NCBI GenBank assembly: GCA_963848815.1
Contig: CAWKFY010000031.1
Location: 637-64,636, forward strand
Origin: an uncultured Chloroflexia bacterium
GTDB taxonomy: Bacteria; Chloroflexota; Dehalococcoidia; GIF9; UBA5629
Direction: 5' to 3'
Length of the DNA: 64,000 nt
This document shows, piece after piece, positions 3,092 through 55,232 of the stretch. Under the pieces are notes generated by a model. The model was not told where the DNA came from, searched no databases, and worked only from the letters and a program-made list of their open reading frames with translations. The position numbers were made by a program, and so were the translations under genes. Within the stretch, counting starts at the first letter, position 1, and every line of letters begins with the position of its first letter.

Positions 3092-4222
3092 ATGGACCTA
3101 CGATTTACTGAACAACAAGAAATACTGAAAAAGTCAGCAAGAGATTTCCTCACTAAAGAATGCCCTAAAGCCAAGGTGAGGGAACTGGAGAAGGACCCTA
3201 AAGGCTATGACCCTGCAATCTGGCAGAAAATGGCAGAACTGGGCTGGCTGGGTTTCAACATTCCAGAAGACTATGAAGGGATGGGCTACTCCTTTGAAGA
3301 CCTAAACATGCATATCGAGGAAGTAGGCAAAAATATACTTCCCGGACCCTATATCAGCACTGTCGTCAATACCTTTGCCATCACCGCTGAAGGCACCGAA
3401 GAACAGAAGAAGGAATTCCTGCCTAAGATATCCAACGGCCAGCTTATACTTACCCTTGCATGGCTCGAGGAGAACGGACAGTATGATCCCTCCGGAATTA
3501 CCCTCAAAGCGGCGCACAAGGGCAATGACTATGTCCTGAACGGTACGAAAATGTTCGTAGACTGCGCACATGTATCCGATTATATGATCGTAGTAGCCAG
3601 GACCAAGGACGGAGCCGGCGAGGATGGAGTCACCCTTCTCCTGGTCGATTCCAAATCAGCAGGCATCAAAACCGAGGTAATTCCTACTATCGCATCAGAC
3701 CATCTATGCCAGGTGGTATTTAAAGACGTGGCAGTGCCGGCCAAGAACGTACTCGGAAAGGTCGACAAGGGCTGGGCCACACTTCAAATGCTCATCCGCA
3801 AAGGCTCTATCCTGAAGTCAGCGGAATCGCTCGGTGGACTGCAGGCAGTGGTCGATATGACCGTTGCTTATTCCAAAGAGCGTGTGCAGTATGACAGGCC
3901 GATCGGAGCCTTCCAGGCACTGCAGCACAAGATGTCCGATATGTGGATAGCCATGGGCACCTGCAAATACCTTCTCTACGAAGCTGCCTGGATGGAAACC
4001 GAGGGCATGCCCAATACCAAAGAAGCATCCATGACTAAAGCCTATATCAATGAGGCTTATAAACTGGTAAGCGCACTGGGCGTAAAGCTTCATGGTGGTA
4101 TCGGCACCAGTTCCGATCACGATGTTCCTCTGTATTATCGCCGGGCCAAGGCAGCCGACACTGTTTACGGCAGCACCGATTATCACAGGGAAATGGTTGC
4201 ACAGCAAATAGGCCTTAAATAG
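3092..4222 (+). CDS. acyl-CoA dehydrogenase family protein
   Basis: 376-aa ORF with an AAGGAGG RBS, adjacent to a paralogous ACAD. C-terminal ACAD helices are visible (QALQHKMSDM, GGIGTSSDHDVPLYYRRAK). Confidence 0.8.
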   Translation: MDLRFTEQQEILKKSARDFLTKECPKAKVRELEKDPKGYDPAIWQKMAELGWLGFNIPEDYEGMGYSFEDLNMHIEEVGKNILPGPYISTVVNTFAITAEGTEEQKKEFLPKISNGQLILTLAWLEENGQYDPSGITLKAAHKGNDYVLNGTKMFVDCAHVSDYMIVVARTKDGAGEDGVTLLLVDSKSAGIKTEVIPTIASDHLCQVVFKDVAVPAKNVLGKVDKGWATLQMLIRKGSILKSAESLGGLQAVVDMTVAYSKERVQYDRPIGAFQALQHKMSDMWIAMGTCKYLLYEAAWMETEGMPNTKEASMTKAYINEAYKLVSALGVKLHGGIGTSSDHDVPLYYRRAKAADTVYGSTDYHREMVAQQIGLK

Positions 4223-4242
4223 ATATTCCTTAGAATCAGCAA

Positions 4243-4280
4243 AAATCCCCTGCCTTGAACAAGGCAGGGGATTTTTAATT
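4243..4280 (+). terminator. rho-independent terminator after the ACAD pair
   Basis: Perfect 14-bp stem AAATCCCCTGCCTT / AAGGCAGGGGATTT with a GAAC loop, followed by a T-rich tract. Confidence 0.8.
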
Positions 4281-4296
4281 TCTCCATTCATTCGAA

Positions 4297-4326
4297 TTGC
4301 TCTCATACTGATAATTGTGTTATACT
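4297..4326 (+). promoter_or_regulatory. candidate promoter for rpsB-tsf (TTGCTC-N18-TATACT, TG-extended)
   Basis: TTGCTC at 4297-4302 and TATACT at 4321-4326, preceded by TGT. Confidence 0.35.
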
Positions 4327-4379
4327 TCCCAGCGGTTTTGAATAAGCAGTTCGCTCTTGTTTCAGGAGGTTAATTAATT

Positions 4380-5129
4380 TTGGCAGATACAATTACCGTC
4401 AAGCAGCTCTTGGAAGCCGGCGCCCATTTCGGCCACCAGACCGGGCATTGGCATCCCAAAATGAAGAATTATATTTTTACCCAGAGAAATGGAATTCATA
4501 TAATCGATCTGGAGCAGACCGTTACCCTGCTGAATAAAGCATGCGCATTCGTAAGTGAGATGGTCGGCAACGGACAATCGATACTGTTCGTAGGCACCAA
4601 GAAACAGGCGCAGGACATAGTTGAAGAAGAGGCCAAACGTTGCGGCATGTTTTATGTCAATCAACGCTGGCTGGGCGGCATGCTTACCAATTTCAATACA
4701 ATACAGGGTAGAATAGATTATCTGGTCAGATTGGAAGATAAGAAATCACGCGGAGACCTCGACTATCTTTCCAAGAAGGACAAACTCAAGGTAGAAAAAG
4801 AGATGGCCAAGCTTAACAAGCTGATGGGCGGATTCAAAGAAATGACCACTCTGCCCGGCGCATTATTTATTATCGACCCCACCAAGGAAAAAATTGCCCT
4901 CAGTGAAGCTCAAAAAGTGGGAGTCAAGATAGTTGCCACAGTGGATACTAACTGCAACCCGGATGGAATTGATTATGTAATACCGGCCAATGACGATGCC
5001 ATAAAAGCCATAAAGGTTATTTGCTCTCACATCGCAAGTGCCGTACTCGAAGGCAAAATGCTGGCGGAAGCCGGAGAAACCAAGGGGCCAGAGGCAGCGG
5101 AACCCGAACCAACCGAACCCGCAGACTAG
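4380..5129 (+). CDS. rpsB: 30S ribosomal protein S2
   Basis: TTG start after an AGGAGG RBS. Sequence MADTITVKQLLEAGAHFGHQTGHWHPKM... is a canonical S2 N-terminus. Confidence 0.95.
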   Translation: MADTITVKQLLEAGAHFGHQTGHWHPKMKNYIFTQRNGIHIIDLEQTVTLLNKACAFVSEMVGNGQSILFVGTKKQAQDIVEEEAKRCGMFYVNQRWLGGMLTNFNTIQGRIDYLVRLEDKKSRGDLDYLSKKDKLKVEKEMAKLNKLMGGFKEMTTLPGALFIIDPTKEKIALSEAQKVGVKIVATVDTNCNPDGIDYVIPANDDAIKAIKVICSHIASAVLEGKMLAEAGETKGPEAAEPEPTEPAD

Positions 5130-5196
5130 TAAATCCGCCCGGCCTGTATGTTTCATCGTCCTGACCGTACTTTTTTAATCCCAAAGGAGGACTAGA

Positions 5197-5694
5197 TTGG
5201 AAATTTCAGCCGACAAAGTTAAAGAACTACGCCAGAAGACTGGCGCTGGTGTGATGGATTGTAAAAAGGCCCTTACCGATGCTGCAGGAAACTTCGAAAA
5301 AGCCTGCGAAATCATTGCCGAGCGAGGGCTGGCCATTGCCAAGAAAAAGTCAGAAAGGACAGCTGAACAGGGTGTAGTAGAATGCTACGTCCATACCGGC
5401 AGCCACCTCGGAGTAATGGTAGAGGTCAACTGCGAGACCGATTTCGTCGCAAGGACACCCGAATTCAAAGAGTTGGCCCATAATATCGCTCTGCAGATAT
5501 CGGCGATGGCGCCGCAGTACGTTGCTGCGAGCGAAGCACCGGCCGACGTTGATGCGGCATCAGTTTGCCTTCTCTTACAACCATTTATTAAAGACCCCGC
5601 AAAAACCATACAGGATGTTATAACCGAGACAATAGCTAAGACTGGTGAGAACATAAAAGTACGCAGGTTCGTACGTTTTGAACTGGGTTATTAG
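5197..5694 (+). CDS. tsf: translation elongation factor Ts (short form, 165 aa)
   Basis: TTG start after AAGGAGG. The UBA-like N-terminus [20 protein letters not shown] and the motif CETDFVA are present. It sits directly after rpsB. Confidence 0.9.
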
Positions 5695-6443: not shown

Positions 6444-6997
6444 CTGAGAAAATTTTAAAAAATGCTGATATTAAGATGCGCAAGGCTATAGAAGCTCTGG
6501 TTAAAGAGCTGGCCGGTATCCGTACAGGCCGTGCCTCACCTGCCCTGGTCGAACATATAAAGGTCGATTACCACGGTGTCCTCACCCCGCTTATTCAGTT
6601 AGCTTCCATTGCAGTGCCTGAACCAAAGACCATAGCCATACATCCCTGGGACAGAAGTATTATTAATAATATAGATAAAGCTATCCTTAAATCGGACCTG
6701 GGGCTAAATCCGATCAACGACGGCACGACGATCAGGATCTCAATTCCACCGCTGACTGAGGAGAGACGCAAAGACCTGGTTAAAATAGTCCACAAACGAC
6801 TGGAGGAATCGCGTGTATCTATTCGCAATATGCGCAGGGAGGTAGTTGACGAACTCAAGTCTTCTGAGAAAAACAAAGAGATATCCCAGGATCAGAATAT
6901 CAGGGCCTCCGAACAGTTGCAGAAATTGACGGACAGTCATATAGATTCGATCAATAAAATCGGCAAGGACAAGGAAGCAGAGATACTCGAAGCCTGA
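6440..6997 (+). CDS. frr: ribosome recycling factor
   Basis: 185 aa with ATGA overlap with pyrH. The sequence [23 protein letters not shown] is typical of RRF. Confidence 0.92.
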
Positions 6998-7097
6998 CTA
7001 AGGCCGCCGATCTGTTATTTTAACCCGCCGGCTTGGTGCGGAAGGTTCATTGATATCCGGGCAGGATCATTATAGTTCCAGGTGTATTTGAAAAGCG

Positions 7098-7910
7098 ATG
7101 TTAATTAAACGGCTGATTACCGGTTTTGCAATTGCTTTATTCATAGGCCTAATCATATGGGCGGGAGAACCCTGGTTCACTATCGCCACCTGTCTGATAG
7201 CAGCTCTGGCCGCTTTCGAATTCTACAGAATAGTAAAAAATGAGCATATCCAGCCCTTAACTTATTTGGGTATAGTCTTTTCGGTGCTCTTTGTCGCCAG
7301 TGCCCACAGCCCTTTACCCGCCACCTGCAATTTGCTTTTCGTCCTCTTAACCTTAATTCCCTTGATCTGGTTATTATTCCCGCGTAACAAGGATCATTCG
7401 TTCATTAATTGGGGATGGACGGCTGCGGGTGTGCTCTATACGGGATGGCTCCTATCGTTTTACATATTGATCCGGAATATGGATAACGGCATGGGGTGGG
7501 TCTACCTTGTGCTCTCCTGTACAGCCCTCAGCGATGTATTTGCCTATATTGTAGGCAGTAACTTCGGTAAGCACGCCCTGGCGTCCTCTATCAGCCCCGG
7601 CAAGACCTGGGAAGGCGCTGCCGGCGGCCTGGCCGCGGCCATAGTTACGTCGATTTTTATAAGCCTGCTATTTAAGCTTCCCCTGGACTACTGGCAAATG
7701 GTTCTGGCAGGTATCATCATCGGGATATTCTCGTTAATCGGAGACCTGGTCGAATCCCTCTTAAAAAGAAATATGAAAGCTAAAGATACGGGGCGTTTAC
7801 TCCCCGGGCACGGCGGTATTCTCGATAGGATCGACAGCCACTTGCTTATCGCACCTGTGGCCTACTACCTGATTGTCCTGGTAAATAATCAGGGTTGGCC
7901 GCTGAAATAG
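7098..7910 (+). CDS. cdsA: phosphatidate cytidylyltransferase
   Basis: 270-aa polytopic membrane ORF with the C-terminal CTP-transferase signature GKTWEGAAGG...GDLVESLLKR..KDTG.LLPGHGGILDRIDS. Confidence 0.88.
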   Translation: MLIKRLITGFAIALFIGLIIWAGEPWFTIATCLIAALAAFEFYRIVKNEHIQPLTYLGIVFSVLFVASAHSPLPATCNLLFVLLTLIPLIWLLFPRNKDHSFINWGWTAAGVLYTGWLLSFYILIRNMDNGMGWVYLVLSCTALSDVFAYIVGSNFGKHALASSISPGKTWEGAAGGLAAAIVTSIFISLLFKLPLDYWQMVLAGIIIGIFSLIGDLVESLLKRNMKAKDTGRLLPGHGGILDRIDSHLLIAPVAYYLIVLVNNQGWPLK

Positions 7911-7974
7911 TCCCTCCCTCATAAGGGTTTGGAACCCGAGCAGCCAACCCTGTCTATGTATCTAAACTATTAAA

Positions 7975-9144
7975 TTAGAGTGTGATGTTGCCTTTTTTCA
8001 GGGTCTCGGTGGGCTCGAACCATTTGATGCCGGTCTTCTTGGCGATTCCAGAGCACTTTTCAGCAACCTTGTCCCACCCCATGCCTTTAGCCAGTGCGAA
8101 GGGGCCGAATATTCCTCCGCCGCCGTTGACCATCGCCAGATCGATCTCAGCTGCGCTCTTGGCAACGCCTGATTCCAACAGCTTCGTGCCTTCGTTGACC
8201 TGCAGACAGATTATGTCCATGGGATCGAAATTGGGATCAGCTTTGGTTACATCGATGGTGGGTCGGTTGCCGCCGGGCCACTCATAGATGCCTTTGTTGG
8301 TCTTCTTACCCAGATGGCCCTCTTTGTTCAGTTTCTCAATCCAAGGCATCGGCTTGAAATCAGCTGAAAGCATCTTGGCGAAATATTCCATACTGTGAAG
8401 TGCCACGTCCAGGCCTGCAAAGTCCATGATCTCGTAGGGGCCCATGGGTGCGCCGATCGACTTGACCTTGGCGTCGAGGGCCTCGGGGTTGGCGCCCTTG
8501 TCGAGCAGGTAGGACATATAGAGGCCCGCCGGCGCGCCGAGCCTGTTGTAGATGAATCCCGGGGTGTCCTTTTCCACGCGGATGCCGATCATGCCGCCGC
8601 GGAAGTTCGTCCATTTGGCGACCAGTGCAGCGCAGACATCCATCGTCTCGGCCGAGGTCTTGTCGCCCTTGATAATCTCGACCAGTTTCATCATTACCGC
8701 GGGATTGAAGAAGTGAATGCCGACAACCTTGTCCGGCCTTTTAGTAGCTTCACCTATTTTGGTGATACTCATATTCGAAGTGTTCGAAGCGAGAATGGCA
8801 TGCTTTGGAGCAGCCTCATCCATTTCCTTGAAAATCTTCTGCTTGAGGTCCAGAATTTCCGGAGCAGCCTCGATCGCAAAGTCAGCGTCTTTTACAGCAT
8901 CTTTCAATACTGTAAAACCCTTTATGCCGCCTACGGCCTTGTCCATTGCTTCCTGGGTCATTTTCTGCTTGGATACCTGTTTCATCAAGCTGTCCTTTAG
9001 CTTGCCCAAACCTTTATCGACAAACTCCTGCTTGATATCGTACAGGTTAACCTTGTAACCTGACATGGCGAGCACCTCAGCAATGCCGTGGCCCATGTCG
9101 CCGGCGCCTATCATGGCGATAGTCTTGATGTCCTCAACCTTCAT
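7975..9144 (-). CDS. 3-hydroxyacyl-CoA dehydrogenase (NAD-binding)
   Basis: 389 aa. It has the Rossmann motif IAMIGAGDMGHGIA, the HFFNPA motif and the C-terminal 3HCDH domain. Confidence 0.85.
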   Translation of the reverse strand: MKVEDIKTIAMIGAGDMGHGIAEVLAMSGYKVNLYDIKQEFVDKGLGKLKDSLMKQVSKQKMTQEAMDKAVGGIKGFTVLKDAVKDADFAIEAAPEILDLKQKIFKEMDEAAPKHAILASNTSNMSITKIGEATKRPDKVVGIHFFNPAVMMKLVEIIKGDKTSAETMDVCAALVAKWTNFRGGMIGIRVEKDTPGFIYNRLGAPAGLYMSYLLDKGANPEALDAKVKSIGAPMGPYEIMDFAGLDVALHSMEYFAKMLSADFKPMPWIEKLNKEGHLGKKTNKGIYEWPGGNRPTIDVTKADPNFDPMDIICLQVNEGTKLLESGVAKSAAEIDLAMVNGGGGIFGPFALAKGMGWDKVAEKCSGIAKKTGIKWFEPTETLKKGNITL

Positions 9145-42236: not shown

Positions 42237-42311
42237 TGGTAGCGGGGGCAGGATTTGAACCTGCGACCTTCGGGTTATGAGCCCGACGAGCTGCCACTGC
42301 TCCACCCCGCG
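42237..42311 (-). tRNA. tRNA-Met, initiator type (anticodon CAT), CCA encoded
   Basis: The reverse complement is cgcggggtggagcagtggcagctcgtcgggctcataacccgaaggtcgcaggttcaaatcctgcccccgctacca. It shows a 1:72 mismatch and three G-C pairs closing the anticodon stem, both hallmarks of bacterial tRNA-fMet. Confidence 0.88.
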
Positions 42312-42361
42312 GCATACTTTAGTAGTTAGTGACTCCTGGAGTCTTGTGCTCATACTGTTGT

Positions 42362-45309
<2,948 letters not shown>

Positions 45310-48447: not shown

Positions 48448-48566
48448 CCGTTACCTCCCCCTCAATAATTTCCACATTATACCGATTGTTTTTTTTAAAC
48501 GGCCACCGCTGCCGCAGCTTTATATTATATTAAACTTTGAAATATTTCACATCTACGGACTCAGGT

Positions 48567-48668
48567 CTATTCCCACTCTATAGTTGAAGGAGGCTTGCTG
48601 AGAATGGCGAAGGTCTGCCACATCTCACGATACAGTTTGGCCTTTTTAATCTCGTTCATCACGATCCA
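48567..48668 (-). repeat. displaced, internally deleted copy of the guaA 3' end (left boundary repeat of the islet)
   Basis: 48567-48600 matches 50561-50594 (34 nt, 3 mismatches, including the stop and last 11 codons of guaA). 48601-48668 matches 50787-50854 (68 nt, 1 mismatch). The 192 nt at 50595-50786 are absent from the left copy. Confidence 0.85.
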
Positions 48669-49001
48669 ATGGAACAATATAGTATATTCCAATTATTTTC
48701 TAATAGTACGAAATATACAATAAATTATATTTTGCTTTTTACTCAGGTAAAAATATAGCGAAATTCGAGGATTTAATAAAATTTCCTATTGATTTCACCT
48801 GGGTATTATGTTATTCTTCTATGCAGGTCGATTATGTATTTATATTTTTCGTATGATACAATCATCTGATAAAACAAATTGACCTAATACGAGTGGGGGA
48901 GGTTTATATAGAGAGGTTATATTGGGTTTTATTCAATGGCTTTCAGTTACCAGATTTCAAAGATTTATCCTTTTGGAATAATAGGGTTGGAGGAGGTAAA
49001 T

Positions 49002-49277
49002 ATGGCAAGTAAAAATATAGAACCACAGAAAATTAACCTTGATGAGTTACTAAAAAAGGACCGAAAGTTTCTGCTCGCAATGATCGATAATCCCAAAGAT
49101 GCGTTTAATAAGCAACGTATACGCATAGACAATAAATCTATCAGCAGTATGAATGCTGCCGCTGACCGGCTGAGAATGCAGGCAATTGCAGCATTTTCAG
49201 ATATTGCAAAAGACGGTTTAAATAATTGCTATAATTGTAAGGGCTTCGCTAGCGGTGATGCCACAAGCCCCATGTGA
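49002..49277 (+). CDS. 91-aa candidate RiPP precursor peptide
   Basis: GGAGGAGG lies 6 nt upstream of the ATG at 49002. Translation: MASKNIEPQKINLDELLKKDRKFLLAMIDNPKDAFNKQRIRIDNKSISSMNAAADRLRMQAIAAFSDIAKDGLNNCYNCKGFASGDATSPM. It has a long helical leader-like N-part and a short Cys-x-x-Cys C-terminal tail, and sits directly upstream of a radical SAM/SPASM gene. The 48936 start in the ORF track has no RBS. Confidence 0.6.
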   Translation: MASKNIEPQKINLDELLKKDRKFLLAMIDNPKDAFNKQRIRIDNKSISSMNAAADRLRMQAIAAFSDIAKDGLNNCYNCKGFASGDATSPM

Positions 49278-49407
49278 TGAGACTTTAGTTGACACGCAGG
49301 ACGGCGATTAACTTTATTGTCTTGTTATTACGTATAGCTATTTACAGTGCCAAAAATACTGCTTATATTAGCCGTATTTGTATTTTGCTTGTCAGGCTTT
49401 ATTGACG

Positions 49408-50527
49408 ATGTCCAAACCAGTGATTGCCCCATATTTGCTATCAAATGCAATAGTCTTCCCAATCGGTTTTCACTGGGACATTACACAGACTTGCAATTTC
49501 CAATGTAACTTCTGCCTGAATAGTTCGGGTAAATGCTCTCCTAATGAGCTGTCCTTTTCACAGAAAATAGAGCTTGTCGATCGCTTATTTGACCTTGGCG
49601 TGATGTATATTCGTATTCTCGGCGGGGAACCGTTTTCAATACCGAATACCATAGCTATCATGGAATATGCTGTATCACGAGGCATGCAATTATCATTCAG
49701 TACCAACGGCAGCCTACTGACCGATGGAATTGTCTCGGCTCTGGCCAGGATAAGAAAAGGTATTAGCTACATCCAGATAAGTCTCTATGGTTCAACACCA
49801 TCCGCCATGGCACGAATTACTAACTCTGAAAGCTCCTTCCCGAAGGTAACAATATGGGATGCAGTTATTAAGGCGGTACAGATTACCGTTTACTGTACTG
49901 GTAGTGATATGCCGTGAGAATATGGATGATGTCGTGCCCCTCTATGAGTACGCTAAAGCCATGGGTGCAGAAAATTTTAAATTAGTTTTGAAAGTTGATA
50001 CTGGAAGGGGTCAAAACACTGCGTCTTTTAGCTCAATTCAAACTGCACAGGATTGGAGTAATGTTATTTTGGTATTGCAGCGAATTGCATACCTTAATCA
50101 AAAATCCAGCCTAAAAGTGCAATATAATGCACGGCCTTTATTGGGAAAGTATATTAATGAAAGATTTGGTATTGGCTATTTTTGCAATTTTTGTGAAGCG
50201 GGAGTTAGCTATCTATACTGCAATCCAATCGGAGGCCTCAGCCCTTGCCCGTTTCTCAAAGATTCCGATACCGATTATTTATTCGATAGTGCCGGCCAAT
50301 TCGTTTTTAATGTAACCCGAAACAGCCTGCAGGATGTGTGGGATTCTAATGAATTCAATCGATTCCGCAAACTGTTTACATTGAATGATAATAAGGAATT
50401 ATTCAATATGAATTGTCCGAATTTACACAGCGGGGCGTGCCGTCCATGTGTGCTGTCGGGATGTCCATGTCTTCACCATATTCGTTGCTTTCAGGCAGCC
50501 ATTTCAGATTCAAGAATTACCAATTAG
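49408..50527 (+). pseudogene. radical SAM enzyme with C-terminal SPASM-like Cys cluster (peptide-modifying maturase candidate); one frame break near 49,882
   Basis: The CNFQCNFC (CxxxCxxC) motif is at 49492-49515 and ILGGEPF follows. After the frame switch the sequence reads LPFTVLVVICRENMDD...CNFCEAGVSYLYCNPIGGLSPCPF...CPNLHSGACRPCVLSGCPC (50183-50470). This combines ORFs 49378-49917 and 49859-50527. Confidence 0.75.
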
Positions 50528-50560
50528 TAAAACAAAGATCATTAAGACAGAATAGGTCAT

Positions 50561-52164
50561 CTATTCCCACTCAATGGTTGAAGGAGGTTTGCTGGTTATA
50601 TCGTAGACCACTCGGTTTACGCCGGGCACTTCGTTGACGATCCTGTTGGATATAGCGGATAAAAGAGGATACGGCAGCCTCGCCCAGTCGGCCGTCATGG
50701 CATCCTGACTGGTCACCGCTCGCACCGCTACCAGGTATCCGTATGTCCTGAAGTCGCCCATAACGCCCACGCTGTGCACATCGGTAAGAATGGCGAAGGT
50801 CTGCCACATCTCGCGATACAGTTTGGCCTTTTTAATCTCGTTCATCACGATCCAGTCAGCGCCCCGCAATATCTCCAGCTTTTCCCTGGTGACCTCGCCT
50901 ATGATACGGATAGCCAGGCCGGGACCCGGGAAGGGCTGACGCCAGACCATATCTTCCGGCAAGCCGAGCTCCAGCCCAACCTTGCGCACTTCGTCCTTGA
51001 AAAGGTATCGCAGCGGTTCGATCAACGTCAGCGCCATTTTGGCCGGCAGGCCGCCCACGTTGTGATGCGTCTTGATCTTGGCAGCCGCTTTGGTCTCGGG
51101 GGTAGCGCTTTCGATAACATCCGGGTACAACGTGCCCTGTGTCAGAAAATCTATCTTGCCCAGCTTGGTTGCCTGCCTCTCAAAGACCCTGATGAATTCC
51201 TGGCCGATTTGCTTTCTCTTCTGCTCCGGATCGATTACGCCTTTGAGCTTTTTCAGGAAGTTGTCGGTGGCATCCACATAAATCACGTTCATGCGCAGGT
51301 TTTTACGGAAGGTATTGAGTGCTCTTTCAGGCTCCTCGCGCCTGAGCAAACCATTATTAACAAAAATACATGTGAGCTGGTCGCCTATGGCAGCGTGCAC
51401 AAGTTTGGCTGCAACGGCAGAATCGACCCCGCCGGATAGAGCGCAAATTACCTTGCCACCATGTACCTGCGACCTTATAGCGCCGATGCTTTCATTAATA
51501 AAATTGCCGGGCGTCCATGTGCCCTTGCAGCCGCAGACCCGGTAAAGGAAGTTTTTAATGATATTGATGCCTTCCGGCGTGTGCGCTACCTCAGGATGAA
51601 ACTGCAGGCCGAAGGTCTTGCGGCCGTCGCTGATCACTGCATTGGGTGAATTTTCCGTGTAGGCGGACGATTTGAATCCCGGGGGCATATCTATCACCTG
51701 GTCGCCGTGGCTCATCCACACCGAGAGTGATTCGGGCAGGCCTCTGAACAGAGGCGATCTTTCATCGCTCACGTGCAAGACAGCCTGCCCGTATTCACGT
51801 TTGGCGCCCGGCGCAACGGTGCCGCCAAGCTGATGGGTGATCAGCTGCATGCCGTAGCAGATGCCGAGAACCGGAAGGTGGCTTTCATAGATGCCAACCG
51901 GCGTCAGCGGAGCTTTCTTCTCATATACGCTGGCAGGGCCGCCCGAGAGGATAAAGCCGCGGGGGTGGATGGCCATGATCTGTTTAGAGGGGCGTCATGC
52001 GGGAAAAGCTCGCAATATACATTGCATTCCCTGACGCGGCGTGCTATCAGGTGGCTGTACTGGGAGCCGAAATCGATGATGGCGATGGCTTCTTTTACGC
52101 CGTGCGGACACTTCGCCCGGTTTGGGGGCAGCCTGTACTCCCTGAAGCTCTTTGGCGATTTCAA
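50561..52164 (-). pseudogene. guaA: GMP synthase (glutamine-hydrolysing); frame break between the GATase start and the rest; 5' end uncertain
   Basis: ORF 50561-51976 (471 aa) runs from ...[10 protein letters not shown] through the ATP-PPase motif SGGVDS to ...PPSTIEWE. The GATase N-terminus [31 protein letters not shown] is in another frame (ORF 51904-52164). Confidence 0.9.
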
Positions 52165-52339
52165 GATAGGCCGAAACTTCGGCGTCGTCGGTGGTGGCTA
52201 CGCGGTGGCTGCCTGTTTCTTCTTTACCCTTCTTCATTGGAAAAGTATATCACAGGGCAAGCAGAGCATTCCAATGTGAGCCATATTTAAACTATGGCGC
52301 GATTTAGAGTACAATTTCTCTGTAAAATCCGCCCGTAAA

Positions 52340-53547: not shown

Positions 53548-55232
53548 ATGAGAAGCGACAGCATCAAACAGGGTATCGAAAGGGCTCCGCACCGGGCGCT
53601 GCTAAGGGCCGTCGGCGTACGCAGCAGCGATTTCGACAAGCCGTTCATCGGCATCGTCAACAGCTTCAACGAGATCGTTCCCGGGCATATCCACCTGCGC
53701 TCGATCGCCGATGCGGTCAAGGCCGGCGTGCTCAGCGCCGGCGGCGTTCCCTTCGAGTTCAACACCATCGGCGTCTGCGACGGCATCGCCATGAACCATC
53801 CCGGCATGAAATACAGCCTGCCCAGCCGCGAGCTGATCGCCGACTCGGTGGAAATCATGGCCGAAGCGCACCACTTCGATGCGCTGGTCTTCATCCCCAA
53901 CTGCGACAAGATCATCCCCGGCATGCTGATGGCTGCCGTGCAGGCTTGAACGTGCCGTCCATCTTCATCAGCGGCGGCCCCATGCTGGCCGGCAGACTGC
54001 ATGAAAGACGGCAAGCCGCAGGCCGTCGACCTGATTTCGGTTTTCACGGCCGTGGGCAGCGTAGCGCAAGGCAAGATGACCGAGGCCGAGCTTGAAGCAG
54101 ATCGAGATCGCGGCCTGCCCGGGCTGCGGAAGCTGCTCCGGCATGTACACGGCCAATACCATGAACTGCCTGACCGAGGCGGTGGGCATGGCGCTGCCGG
54201 GCAACGGCACCATCCCGGCCGTCGATTCCCGGAGGCTGCACCTGGCCAGGGAAGCCGGCAAGCAGATCATGGGCTTCTTAGAGAAAAATCTCTGTCCCAG
54301 GGATATCATCACCAAAGAATCCATCGACAACGCCTTCGCGGTGGATATGGCGCTGGGCGGCAGCACCAACTCGGTGCTGCATTTCATGGCCATCGCCCAC
54401 GAGGCGGGCATCAAATTCCCGCTGTCCCTTGATAAATGAGATAAGCGACAAGGTGCCGCATCTGTGCAAGATCAGCCCGGCCAGCGATGTCCATATCGAA
54501 GACCTCGACCGGGCGGGCGGCATACCGGCCGTGATGCACGAGATCAGCCAAGCTGCTGAACGGCAACGCCAAAACTGTCACGCTCAAGCCGCTATCCGAC
54601 ACCTATAAGCAATGCCAGGGTACGGAACCACGAGGTCATCCGGCCATTTTCCAAACCTTTCTCGAAGACGGGCGGCCTGGCCATCCTGTTCGGCAACCTG
54701 GCGCCGGGCGGGGCGGTGGTCAAGAGCGGCGCCGTAGCGCCGGAGATGATGGTGCACACAGGGCCCGGCCCGGGTCTTTGAAAACGAAGAGGACGCTACC
54801 AAAGGCATCATGGCCGACAAGATCAAGAAAGGCGACGTGGTGGTCATCCGCTATGAAGGCCCGAGGGGCGGCCCGGGCATGCGGGAGATGCTGACGCCCA
54901 CTTCGCTGCTAAGCGGCATGGGACTGGACAGCTAGGTAGCATTGATAACCGACGGGCGTTTTTCGGGCGGCACCAGGGGCGCGGCCATCGGGCACGTGGT
55001 CCCGGAAGCTGCCGACCGCGGCCCCATAGCCGCAGTACAGAATGGTGATATAATCAGTATAGATATACCTGCCAGGAAGCTGGAAATCAAGGTCAGCGAG
55101 GCTGAGATTAAAAGACGGCTGAAGAAGCCTGCCTCCATTCAAGACGCAGCATCAAGGGCGGTTACCTGAAGAGATATATTGAAAAGGTCGGCCCTGCCAG
55201 CGAGGGCGCAGTATTCAAAGATTCAGGAGTAA
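53548..55232 (+). pseudogene. ilvD: dihydroxy-acid dehydratase; at least 8 frame changes plus an in-frame TAG at 54933-54935
   Basis: The ordered IlvD segments are readable only by hopping frames: [19 protein letters not shown]...[13 protein letters not shown] / [16 protein letters not shown] / KDGKPQAVDLISVFTAVG..AELE / [24 protein letters not shown]... / [16 protein letters not shown]... / [11 protein letters not shown] / [31 protein letters not shown] / [10 protein letters not shown]...[19 protein letters not shown]...[22 protein letters not shown]... / [19 protein letters not shown]. Confidence 0.88.

Follow-up and report, generated by a model that had tools for sequence, protein, structure and literature searches.

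The 64,000-nt stretch of DNA analysed here (the window; positions 637 to 64,636 of contig CAWKFY010000031.1, assembly GCA_963848815.1, from an uncultured Chloroflexia bacterium of the Dehalococcoidia) includes a small peptide gene followed on the plus strand by a gene for a radical S-adenosylmethionine (rSAM)/SPASM enzyme. The pair very probably constitutes a two-gene precursor-maturase cassette of the RiPP type (ribosomally synthesized peptide with post-translational modifications), belonging to a rare, widely scattered and apparently undescribed family. The peptide has a leader/core architecture with periodic, invariant cysteines, the gene pair is conserved, and the enzyme possesses auxiliary-cluster ligands but no RiPP recognition element (RRE). 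By analogy with characterized relatives the enzyme would modify the core at or through these cysteines, and thioether formation specifically is given close to an even chance. The preliminary description of the window proposed a minimal two-gene RiPP cassette without assignable class, a proposal that the present analysis supports; no named family model was reached. The elements of the cassette are as follows, with L001 denoting a Logan contig from another sample that carries a 79%-identical copy.

48989-48996, plus strand: Shine-Dalgarno site GGAGGAGG, 5 nt ahead of the ATG (L001 counterpart, GGAGGAAG).
49002-49277, plus strand: precursor peptide gene, 91 amino acids, identified by homologues, alignment, selection analysis and predicted helices.
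49002-49211, plus strand: precursor leader, residues ~1-70.
49221-49238, plus strand: triplets N-N-C and Y-N-C (residues 74-79) of the precursor core, which spans residues 71-91.
49278-49407, plus strand: intergenic spacer, 130 nt, alignable with L001 in a 79%-identical blastn match covering the whole cassette.
49408-50527, plus strand: rSAM/SPASM maturase gene with ATG at 49408, 372 codons after removal of one extra base.
49492-49515, plus strand: CX3CX2C motif of the enzyme, CNFQCNFC, residues 29-36.
50192-50470, plus strand: seven auxiliary-cluster cysteines of the enzyme.

The 91-residue open reading frame (ORF) with its strong Shine-Dalgarno site reads as originally described, and the motif DRKFLLAMIDNPKDAFNKQRIRI and tail DGLNNCYNCKGFASGDATSPM quoted at that time correspond to residues 20-42 and 71-91, respectively. 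The tail had been termed CxxC-type: cysteines are present there, but the defining feature is a periodic repeat of X-X-Cys triplets, which occur in tandem at the C-terminus throughout the family. The window peptide, which ends in TSPM, represents the shortest version with two triplets, NNCYNC, followed by a 12-residue tail. The same NNCYNC recurs in the homologue P0066 (…ACNNCYNCCVII). The cores recovered were of the following types.

Window: NNCYNC plus KGFASGDATSPM.
L007 and L016: (MGC)4.
Many loci: (QGC)2-5, with (QGC)5 for example in the Prosthecochloris locus L018.
L015 and L024: MGC(QGC)4.
Several loci: QACDACNGCRACKAC.
One locus each: NMCEGCNAC, NACNNC, DVCNGCNMC and NNCDGCNNC.

In 50 distinct precursors there are two to six cysteines per core, and the spacing between consecutive cysteines is exactly three residues in 128 of 146 instances. 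Cysteine accounts for 9.8% of the last 40 residues compared to 0.65% in the leaders, a 15-fold difference. Of 195 triplets, 144 (74%) have Gln, Asn, Asp or Glu at the first position (X1); at the second (X2), Gly occurs 87 times and Ala 46 times. Asn, not Gly, precedes both cysteines of the window peptide. The core cysteines themselves are invariant in the family alignment. Modeling of the precursor with AlphaFold2 (AF2) placed helices at residues 13-72 and left the C-terminal core disordered; a Foldseek search with this model (predicted local distance difference test score, pLDDT, 63) produced no significant match. The ratios of nonsynonymous to synonymous substitution rates (dN/dS) relative to the L001 copy amount to 0.21 (peptide) and 0.15 (enzyme), and both genes therefore are coding and under purifying selection.

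The family is sparse in sequence collections. A word-indexed protein search with the window peptide returned the query and one 65%-identical protein, encoded on L001 and L002, that is again followed by an rSAM gene. The wider precursor family surfaced only via the neighbors of enzyme homologues and a profile search: an exhaustive HMMER search with a close-clade profile gave 27 matches among 1.84 billion cluster representatives, all but two of which have the same cores. Two tandem leader domains precede a single X-X-Cys core at L009 (1379-1843), L011 (4526-4930) and L045 (346-879) and in P0049, P0050, P0053, P0062, P0064 and P0072. Locus L031 contains two precursor genes, 1369-1680 and 1812-2072, with cores NGCNACNGCRACKAC and NACNGC, upstream of one enzyme gene. 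The tails that follow the core end in hydrophobic-x-Arg(-Arg) in P0049, P0050, P0051, P0053, P0058, P0060, P0061 and P0063, the endings of these eight being …TIRR, …VIR, …PIER, …IINR, …PIYR, …MIRR, …MIKR and …GMVR. The 675-residue protein P0071 has five leader-motif-like repeats (LLxxLIQxPxxTYxQI) and matched the peptide profile with an E value of 2e-4, but probably is unrelated to the precursor family.

The leader alignment has the motif (D/N)-x-x-F/L-L-L-x-(M/L)-(I/L)-(D/E)-x-P-x-(K)-(A/T), in which Asp-20 and Pro-31 are nearly invariant, and the second helix ends in R-A-x-x-x-F. The likeness to NHLP-type leaders that was suggested initially holds at the level of the family: 17 of 36 precursors match NF038399 (‘Os1348 family NHLP clan protein’) with a best E value of 1.2e-8, whereas the window peptide alone has no match. 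Among the same 36 precursors, three match TIGR03793 (NHLP leader), three match TIGR04509 and 11 match the Pfam family Frankia_peptide (PF14407). Ten members scanned singly all fell under the curated cut-offs; NF038399 reached 25.4 bits at best (cut-off 40) and TIGR03793 19.8 bits (cut-off 50.9). Judged from these matches, the leader is a distant relative of the NHLP clan that lies outside any described family. The leaders of the QGC/MGC clade (L007, L008, L015-L024, L030 and L035-L040) include an extra conserved cysteine in the sequence D-I/V-x-C-D-Q, which is missing from the clade to which the window belongs.

The association of the two genes extends well beyond the window. Approximately 30 homologues of the enzyme were identified at 28-81% identity, and their loci were taken from assemblies, GTDB genomes and JGI metagenomes for extraction of the upstream ORFs. 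In each of the 29 loci the enzyme gene is immediately preceded by a same-strand ORF of 75-177 codons, so that the small-ORF homologues beside related enzymes, whose absence the preliminary description had named as a test of its proposal, are indeed found. Homology of the small ORFs is evident by BLAST clustering in 26 of the 29 loci, and the remaining three are divergent but recognizable by eye. The loci span at least nine phyla and one archaeon, with metagenome-assembled genomes (MAGs) of Dehalococcoidia, Armatimonadetes, Anaerolineales, Pirellulales/Planctomycetota, Bacteroidetes, Prosthecochloris, Nitrospirae, Bradyrhizobium and Bathyarchaeota among the hosts. When the 629 ORFs of the 29 loci were clustered all-against-all, the only shared families were the enzyme (29/29) and the small ORF. 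The residual clusters comprised antisense artefacts and a histidine-kinase-like ATPase in five loci, three of which are in Nitrospirae MAGs. A conserved third gene, be it for an RRE, protease, transporter or immunity protein, was rejected by this clustering. The islet in the window likewise contains two genes only, without protease, transporter or immunity gene, as had been remarked previously. Individual loci have neighbors of their own. In a Dehalococcoidia MAG (L003), a reverse-transcriptase gene (Pfam RVT_1; 3774-5348), possibly of group II intron type, borders the cassette immediately upstream in opposite orientation. In the (MGC)4 locus L007, the enzyme gene is followed after 420 nt by a Peptidase_S9 (prolyl oligopeptidase family) gene (6507-8375); the product of the latter could be a local leader protease, but the gene is not conserved in other loci.

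The enzyme gene follows the precursor gene after 130 nt, has 372 codons and encodes CNFQCNFC at residues 29-36, in agreement with the first account of the locus. The protein surpassed the cut-offs for the Pfam families Radical_SAM (PF04055; 66.1 bits against 29.5) and SPASM (PF13186; 25.3 against 21.5). The C29-X3-C33-X2-C36 motif is invariant in 24 sequences, as are seven further cysteines: C262 and C280 in CX12GX4C, and C336-X7-C344-X2-C347-X4-C352-X-C354. The auxiliary cysteines had been described as SPASM-like in spacing. The assignment to SPASM stands by the Pfam match, but the spacing is non-canonical, as the last cysteine group departs from the usual CX2CX5CX3C...C. AF2 modeling of the protein P0003, which is 81% identical, left residues 1-14 disordered and placed the first strand at residues 20-24 (pLDDT 86.7); therefore, there is no room for an N-terminal RRE, which bears out the earlier statement that an extension of this size is missing. 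Correspondingly, a search for an RRE in the enzyme yielded neither a match to PF05402 nor an N-terminal domain in the model.

No NCBIfam model reached its cut-off for any of 27 enzyme members examined. The nearest families are MftC (best E value 4e-40), AhbD, StsB and NirJ2. MftC is the best named family for the window enzyme at 111 bits against a cut-off of 265, and at E ≤ 1e-25 it is matched by 24 of the 27 members compared to 13 for StsB. The scores of the window enzyme with models for sactipeptide and ranthipeptide maturases were 72.7 bits against 625 for StsB, 55.7 against 300 for SkfB and 54.1 against 850 for AlbA. Among solved structures, SkfB was the best match by sequence (1e-22), followed by PqqE. 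At the level of the fold, template modeling scores of ~0.6 were obtained with SkfB, SuiB, BlsE, PqqE, CteB, DesII and the anaerobic sulfatase-maturating enzyme (anSME). Over sequence and fold together, the peptide maturases SkfB and SuiB head the PDB matches, ahead of PqqE, CteB and anSME. Clustering with anSME or another non-RiPP family, the other outcome that had been named as adverse to the RiPP proposal, was not seen: anSME is distant in sequence (E value 5e-7; 12-13% identity in the fold match). SCIFF systems have mixed cysteine spacings of 3-4 compared to 3 in the precursor family; no SCIFF peptide model appeared in the precursor scans, and the SCIFF maturase was outside both the best 25 enzyme matches listed and the families matched at E ≤ 1e-25. 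The cassette also does not conform to mycofactocin, as MftC scores under its cut-off, there is no gene for the RRE protein MftB and the peptide does not end in Val-Tyr. MftC resembles the enzyme as a SPASM protein that acts on a small peptide, but the cassette is without MftB or other mft genes. Overall, these comparisons place the enzyme in a separate clade among peptide-modifying SPASM enzymes.

A mechanism can be proposed in which the leader would dock straight on the enzyme and the core cysteines in turn would reach the active site, where each probably would bind an auxiliary cluster through its thiolate. Seven, rather than eight, auxiliary cysteines would free one cluster site for a substrate thiolate, as in CteB. 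The 5′-deoxyadenosyl radical then would take a hydrogen from a neighboring residue and a sulfur-to-carbon thioether would form, so that each triplet would add one small ring to a chain. The thioether idea is entertained because StsB and SkfB, which form thioethers, are among the nearest characterized relatives by hidden Markov model (HMM) and structure. In the case of StsB, MftC is the closest family overall and yet the enzyme makes Cys-to-Gly sactionines (PMC10288494). The predominance of Asn, Gln, Asp and Glu at X1 also bears on the idea, Asn, Asp and Glu being known ranthipeptide acceptors. Typical thioether acceptors are Asn, Thr and Asp (PMC8939145), and those of PapB are Asp or Glu. As no dedicated protease or exporter is conserved, the product may remain joined to its leader or have an intracellular role.

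Characterized thioether systems share some of these properties. The MftC-like sactisynthase systems StsB/StsA and BlaB/BlaA (PMC10288494) likewise have rSAM/SPASM enzymes with MftC as the nearest full-length relative. The StsA core is Cys/Gly-rich as in the X-X-Cys family, and its thiols are converted to thioethers to Gly alpha-carbons. However, StsB acts together with the RRE protein StsC whereas the cassette family has no RRE, and the StsA core is a CxCxC...GxGxG hairpin in contrast to the X-X-C repeat. In the ranthipeptide pairs PapB/PapA (CX3D/E) and NxxcB/NxxcA (NxxC), one SPASM enzyme installs one small thioether ring per repeat, the short repeats consisting, as here, of one cysteine and an Asn/Asp/Glu-type residue. 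Nevertheless, their repeat period is 4-5 rather than 3, the cassette has neither RRE nor transporter, and the PapB and NxxcB enzymes show no specific HMM relation to the cassette enzyme. Triceptides (PMC11002830) provide a formal analogy to an X1-X2-C ring as SPASM enzymes close repeated three-residue motifs in an i to i+2 ring, but the cross-link joins an aromatic carbon to C-beta instead of involving sulfur, and the precursors and enzymes are unrelated to those of the cassette. On the side of the leader, precursors of the NHLP clan (TIGR03793, TIGR04509, NF038399 and Frankia_peptide) resemble the family in possessing a long structured leader with a motif of the D-x-x-F-L-x-x-L-x-x-x-P-x-x-A type. 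The known members are substrates of lanthionine synthetases, cyclodehydratases, halogenases and proteusin rSAM epimerases, not of RRE-less SPASM enzymes, and have no X-X-C core.

The composition of the triplets admits a different chemistry within a true precursor-maturase pair. The enzyme might oxidize each cysteine locally, as do SbtM and anSME, to generate a 5-thiooxazole or other oxidized cysteine derivative at every X2-Cys; the product then would be a row of regularly spaced soft-metal ligands, a metallophore or metal buffer, and not a cross-linked antibiotic. The rSAM/SPASM enzyme SbtM acts in this manner, turning the Gly-Cys/Sec of a GGUG sequence into a thio(seleno)oxazole with a change of −4 Da (PMC9204691, PMC11002830). 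The high frequency of Gly and Ala ahead of Cys suits such a reaction, the invariance of Cys alone is as expected if the chemistry is local to that residue, and the absence of protease and exporter fits intracellular metal handling. Against these points, the SbtM model (TIGR04082) was matched weakly and through the rSAM core only (46.1 bits against 350), and MftC, StsB and SkfB are closer to the enzyme. In addition, SbtM has 516 residues with an N-terminal extension and its precursor contains selenocysteine in GGUG (PMC9204691), and the Gly-Cys unit that is common in the X-X-Cys family is missing from the window peptide, where both cysteines follow Asn. Local oxidation is regarded as the principal alternative to thioether formation, but as unlikely.

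It is very improbable that the small protein is not a substrate at all but a cysteine-rich metal- or Fe-S-binding partner of the enzyme, for example an electron donor or a cluster carrier. The sequence C-x-x-C-x-x-C is similar to the way a ferredoxin cluster motif begins, and C-x-x-C-x-x-C-x-x-C is present in many members. Moreover, the leader is long, structured and better conserved than the short leaders typical of RiPPs, and no leader protease is conserved. A cysteine count that varies from two to six, with two in the window, nevertheless is a misfit for a fixed cluster site, and the cysteines run through a segment predicted to be disordered. The leader furthermore matches models of NHLP-clan RiPP precursors, and the variation in repeat number, the duplicated leaders and the second precursor gene of L031 are traits typical of RiPP precursors.

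What the preliminary description missed is that the islet with the cassette was inserted into guaA at its 3′ end. The features concerned are listed below.

48566-48668, minus strand: guaA 3′-end remnant (the last 35 nt including the stop codon, plus 68 nt), forming the left direct repeat of the islet.
48669-50559, no strand assigned: low-GC islet with the two-gene cassette only and no other credible ORFs.
50560-50854, minus strand: 3′ end of intact guaA with the right-hand repeat copies, 50560-50594 and 50787-50854.

The islet is 1.9 kb in length, has a GC content of 38% between flanks of 52-56% and begins right after the guaA stop codon. The intact guaA ORF, 51976-50561 on the minus strand, was identified by GMP_synt_C (4e-45) and GATase (2e-34). 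The 35-nt part of the remnant (48566-48600) is 91% identical to 50560-50594 and the 68-nt part (48601-48668) is 99% identical to 50787-50854, so that the 103-nt remnant has an in-frame 192-nt deletion between its two parts relative to intact guaA. The direct repeats that bracket the islet suggest site-specific insertion. Contigs L001 and L002, both from other samples, terminate at exactly this guaA junction; the first bases of L001 are those that come next in guaA, and a fragment of an IS1595-type DDE transposase (23.7 bits, just below the Pfam cut-off) follows them. The contig ends in question are L001 1-315 and 2122-2156 and the right end of L002, and they could reflect repeats on the flanks or a 2.2-kb circle. 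The islet has no integrase. The arrangement looks as if a mobile element had inserted at the guaA 3′ end and then decayed, and the cassette would have reached this genome by horizontal transfer into that site. At most other loci of the family the GC content of the cassette is within a few points of the flanks or somewhat lower, and a drop on both sides as large as that in the window was seen at none.

As assembled, the enzyme gene is split over two frames in ORFs 49378-49917 and 49859-50527. A single frame break had been noted at 49,882; there is one break, but it lies ~35 nt further upstream, where one extra base at ~49847-49849 (ggtaacaat in the window, ggttcaat in L001) lengthens an A run. 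Deletion of base 49848 gives a 372-residue protein that is collinear with, and 81% identical to, the intact 373-residue homologue P0003. The break invites the interpretation that the frameshift is real and that the cassette in the window is a dead remnant, the islet having decayed from an element integrated at guaA. The missing integrase, the deleted guaA remnant on the flank and a core that is the shortest of the family are all compatible with this proposal, which nonetheless is considered improbable. Housekeeping genes of the same contig also are frame-broken (51900-52170 and 53548-55169), the N-terminus of guaA having an ORF of its own and an ilvD-like gene being spread over at least three frames, which points to frequent indels in the assembly of this contig and accords with what had been said of the break at the outset. 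As these genes are broken too, a sequencing indel is the simplest reading, and the single break most likely has that origin. Apart from this break, the 1.1 kb of the enzyme gene contain neither a stop codon nor any other lesion, and the dN/dS of the enzyme relative to L001 also counts against a dead remnant.

Two segments lie upstream of the cassette.

48779-48840, plus strand: conserved non-coding upstream block with a candidate promoter, 79% identical to L001 461-522.
48854-48862, plus strand: TG-extended −10 candidate TGATACAAT, within a ~135-nt window-specific segment unaligned in L001.

The TG-extended −10 candidate put forward previously thus is present but is not conserved in L001, whereas the 62-nt block is retained there amid DNA that otherwise is not alignable. 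The block includes TTGATT (48789-48794) separated by 17 nt from TGtTATTCT, with the −10 hexamer at 48812-48817. This site scores 8/12, which is under the threshold of the promoter scan, and neither promoter-like sites nor the sites of the promoter/terminator scan as a whole were commoner in the region than in shuffled sequence. TTGATT-N17-TGtTATTCT nevertheless appears the better promoter candidate, with promoter function inferred only. A conserved attenuator in the 130-nt spacer was considered and dropped: folding was no better than that of shuffled sequences (z scores of −1.5 and −1.05), and the predicted folds are unlike between the window and L001. Elsewhere in the window, 42237-45308 holds a 23S rRNA gene on the minus strand, followed within ~50 nt by a tRNA-Met (CAT) gene. 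No 5S or 16S rRNA gene was detected in the 64 kb, and the rRNA genes appear to be unlinked.

Several observations weigh against assignment of the cassette as a thioether-forming RiPP system. The chemistry proposed for the core is argued by analogy, and most characterized thioether synthases have an RRE whereas this enzyme has none. The enzyme passes no sactipeptide or ranthipeptide model, nor any other NCBIfam equivalog, and the window peptide alone gave nothing meaningful in Pfam or NCBIfam HMM scans (no NHLP match at E ≤ 1). The Gly or Ala ahead of Cys in 133 of 195 triplets fits a thiooxazole of the SbtM type at Gly-Cys equally well. The lack of protease, exporter and immunity genes is unusual for a secreted antimicrobial RiPP. 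The enzyme gene is frame-broken as assembled and, having only two cysteines, the window peptide may be an atypical or degenerate member of the family.

At cut-off, no curated NCBIfam model (release June 2026) and no specific Pfam family covers the peptide or the enzyme. The family was not found described in a literature search with the core strings QGCQGC, MGCMGC and CNGCRAC and with related concepts, which is weak evidence of absence as subscription journals were mostly outside the search. Two large compendia of rSAM RiPPs select on RRE association or on ABC-transporter neighbors (PMC10288494), and the X-X-Cys family would have escaped both surveys because it is without either. There is a real chance that an rSAM/SPASM-modified peptide with new chemistry or ring architecture is involved. 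Whether the cassette defines a new RiPP class, in which an RRE-less SPASM enzyme reads a protein-like NHLP-type leader and installs a per-triplet modification that is new in such an arrangement, is a more tentative proposition, to which somewhat less than an even chance is assigned. Such a class could take the form of a chain of three-residue thioether rings, the sulfur analogue of triceptides, or of a poly-thiooxazole metal-binding strand.

The rSAM/SPASM maturases are a main source of new peptide chemistry. Their discovery has relied largely on filters for an RRE or an ABC transporter nearby (PMC10288494), and the X-X-Cys family shows what such filters miss. The window documents a small islet, apparently acquired horizontally, at the 3′ end of guaA. 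With two genes, a simple repeat core and a natural copy number of two to six in anaerobic bacteria and an archaeon, the family offers a clean experimental system, and the repeat architecture is attractive for the engineering of multi-ring or multi-ligand peptides. The reaction, once known, would tell how an enzyme without an RRE reads a long NHLP-type leader and whether the chemistry at the cysteines leads to thioether rings, thiooxazoles or other products.

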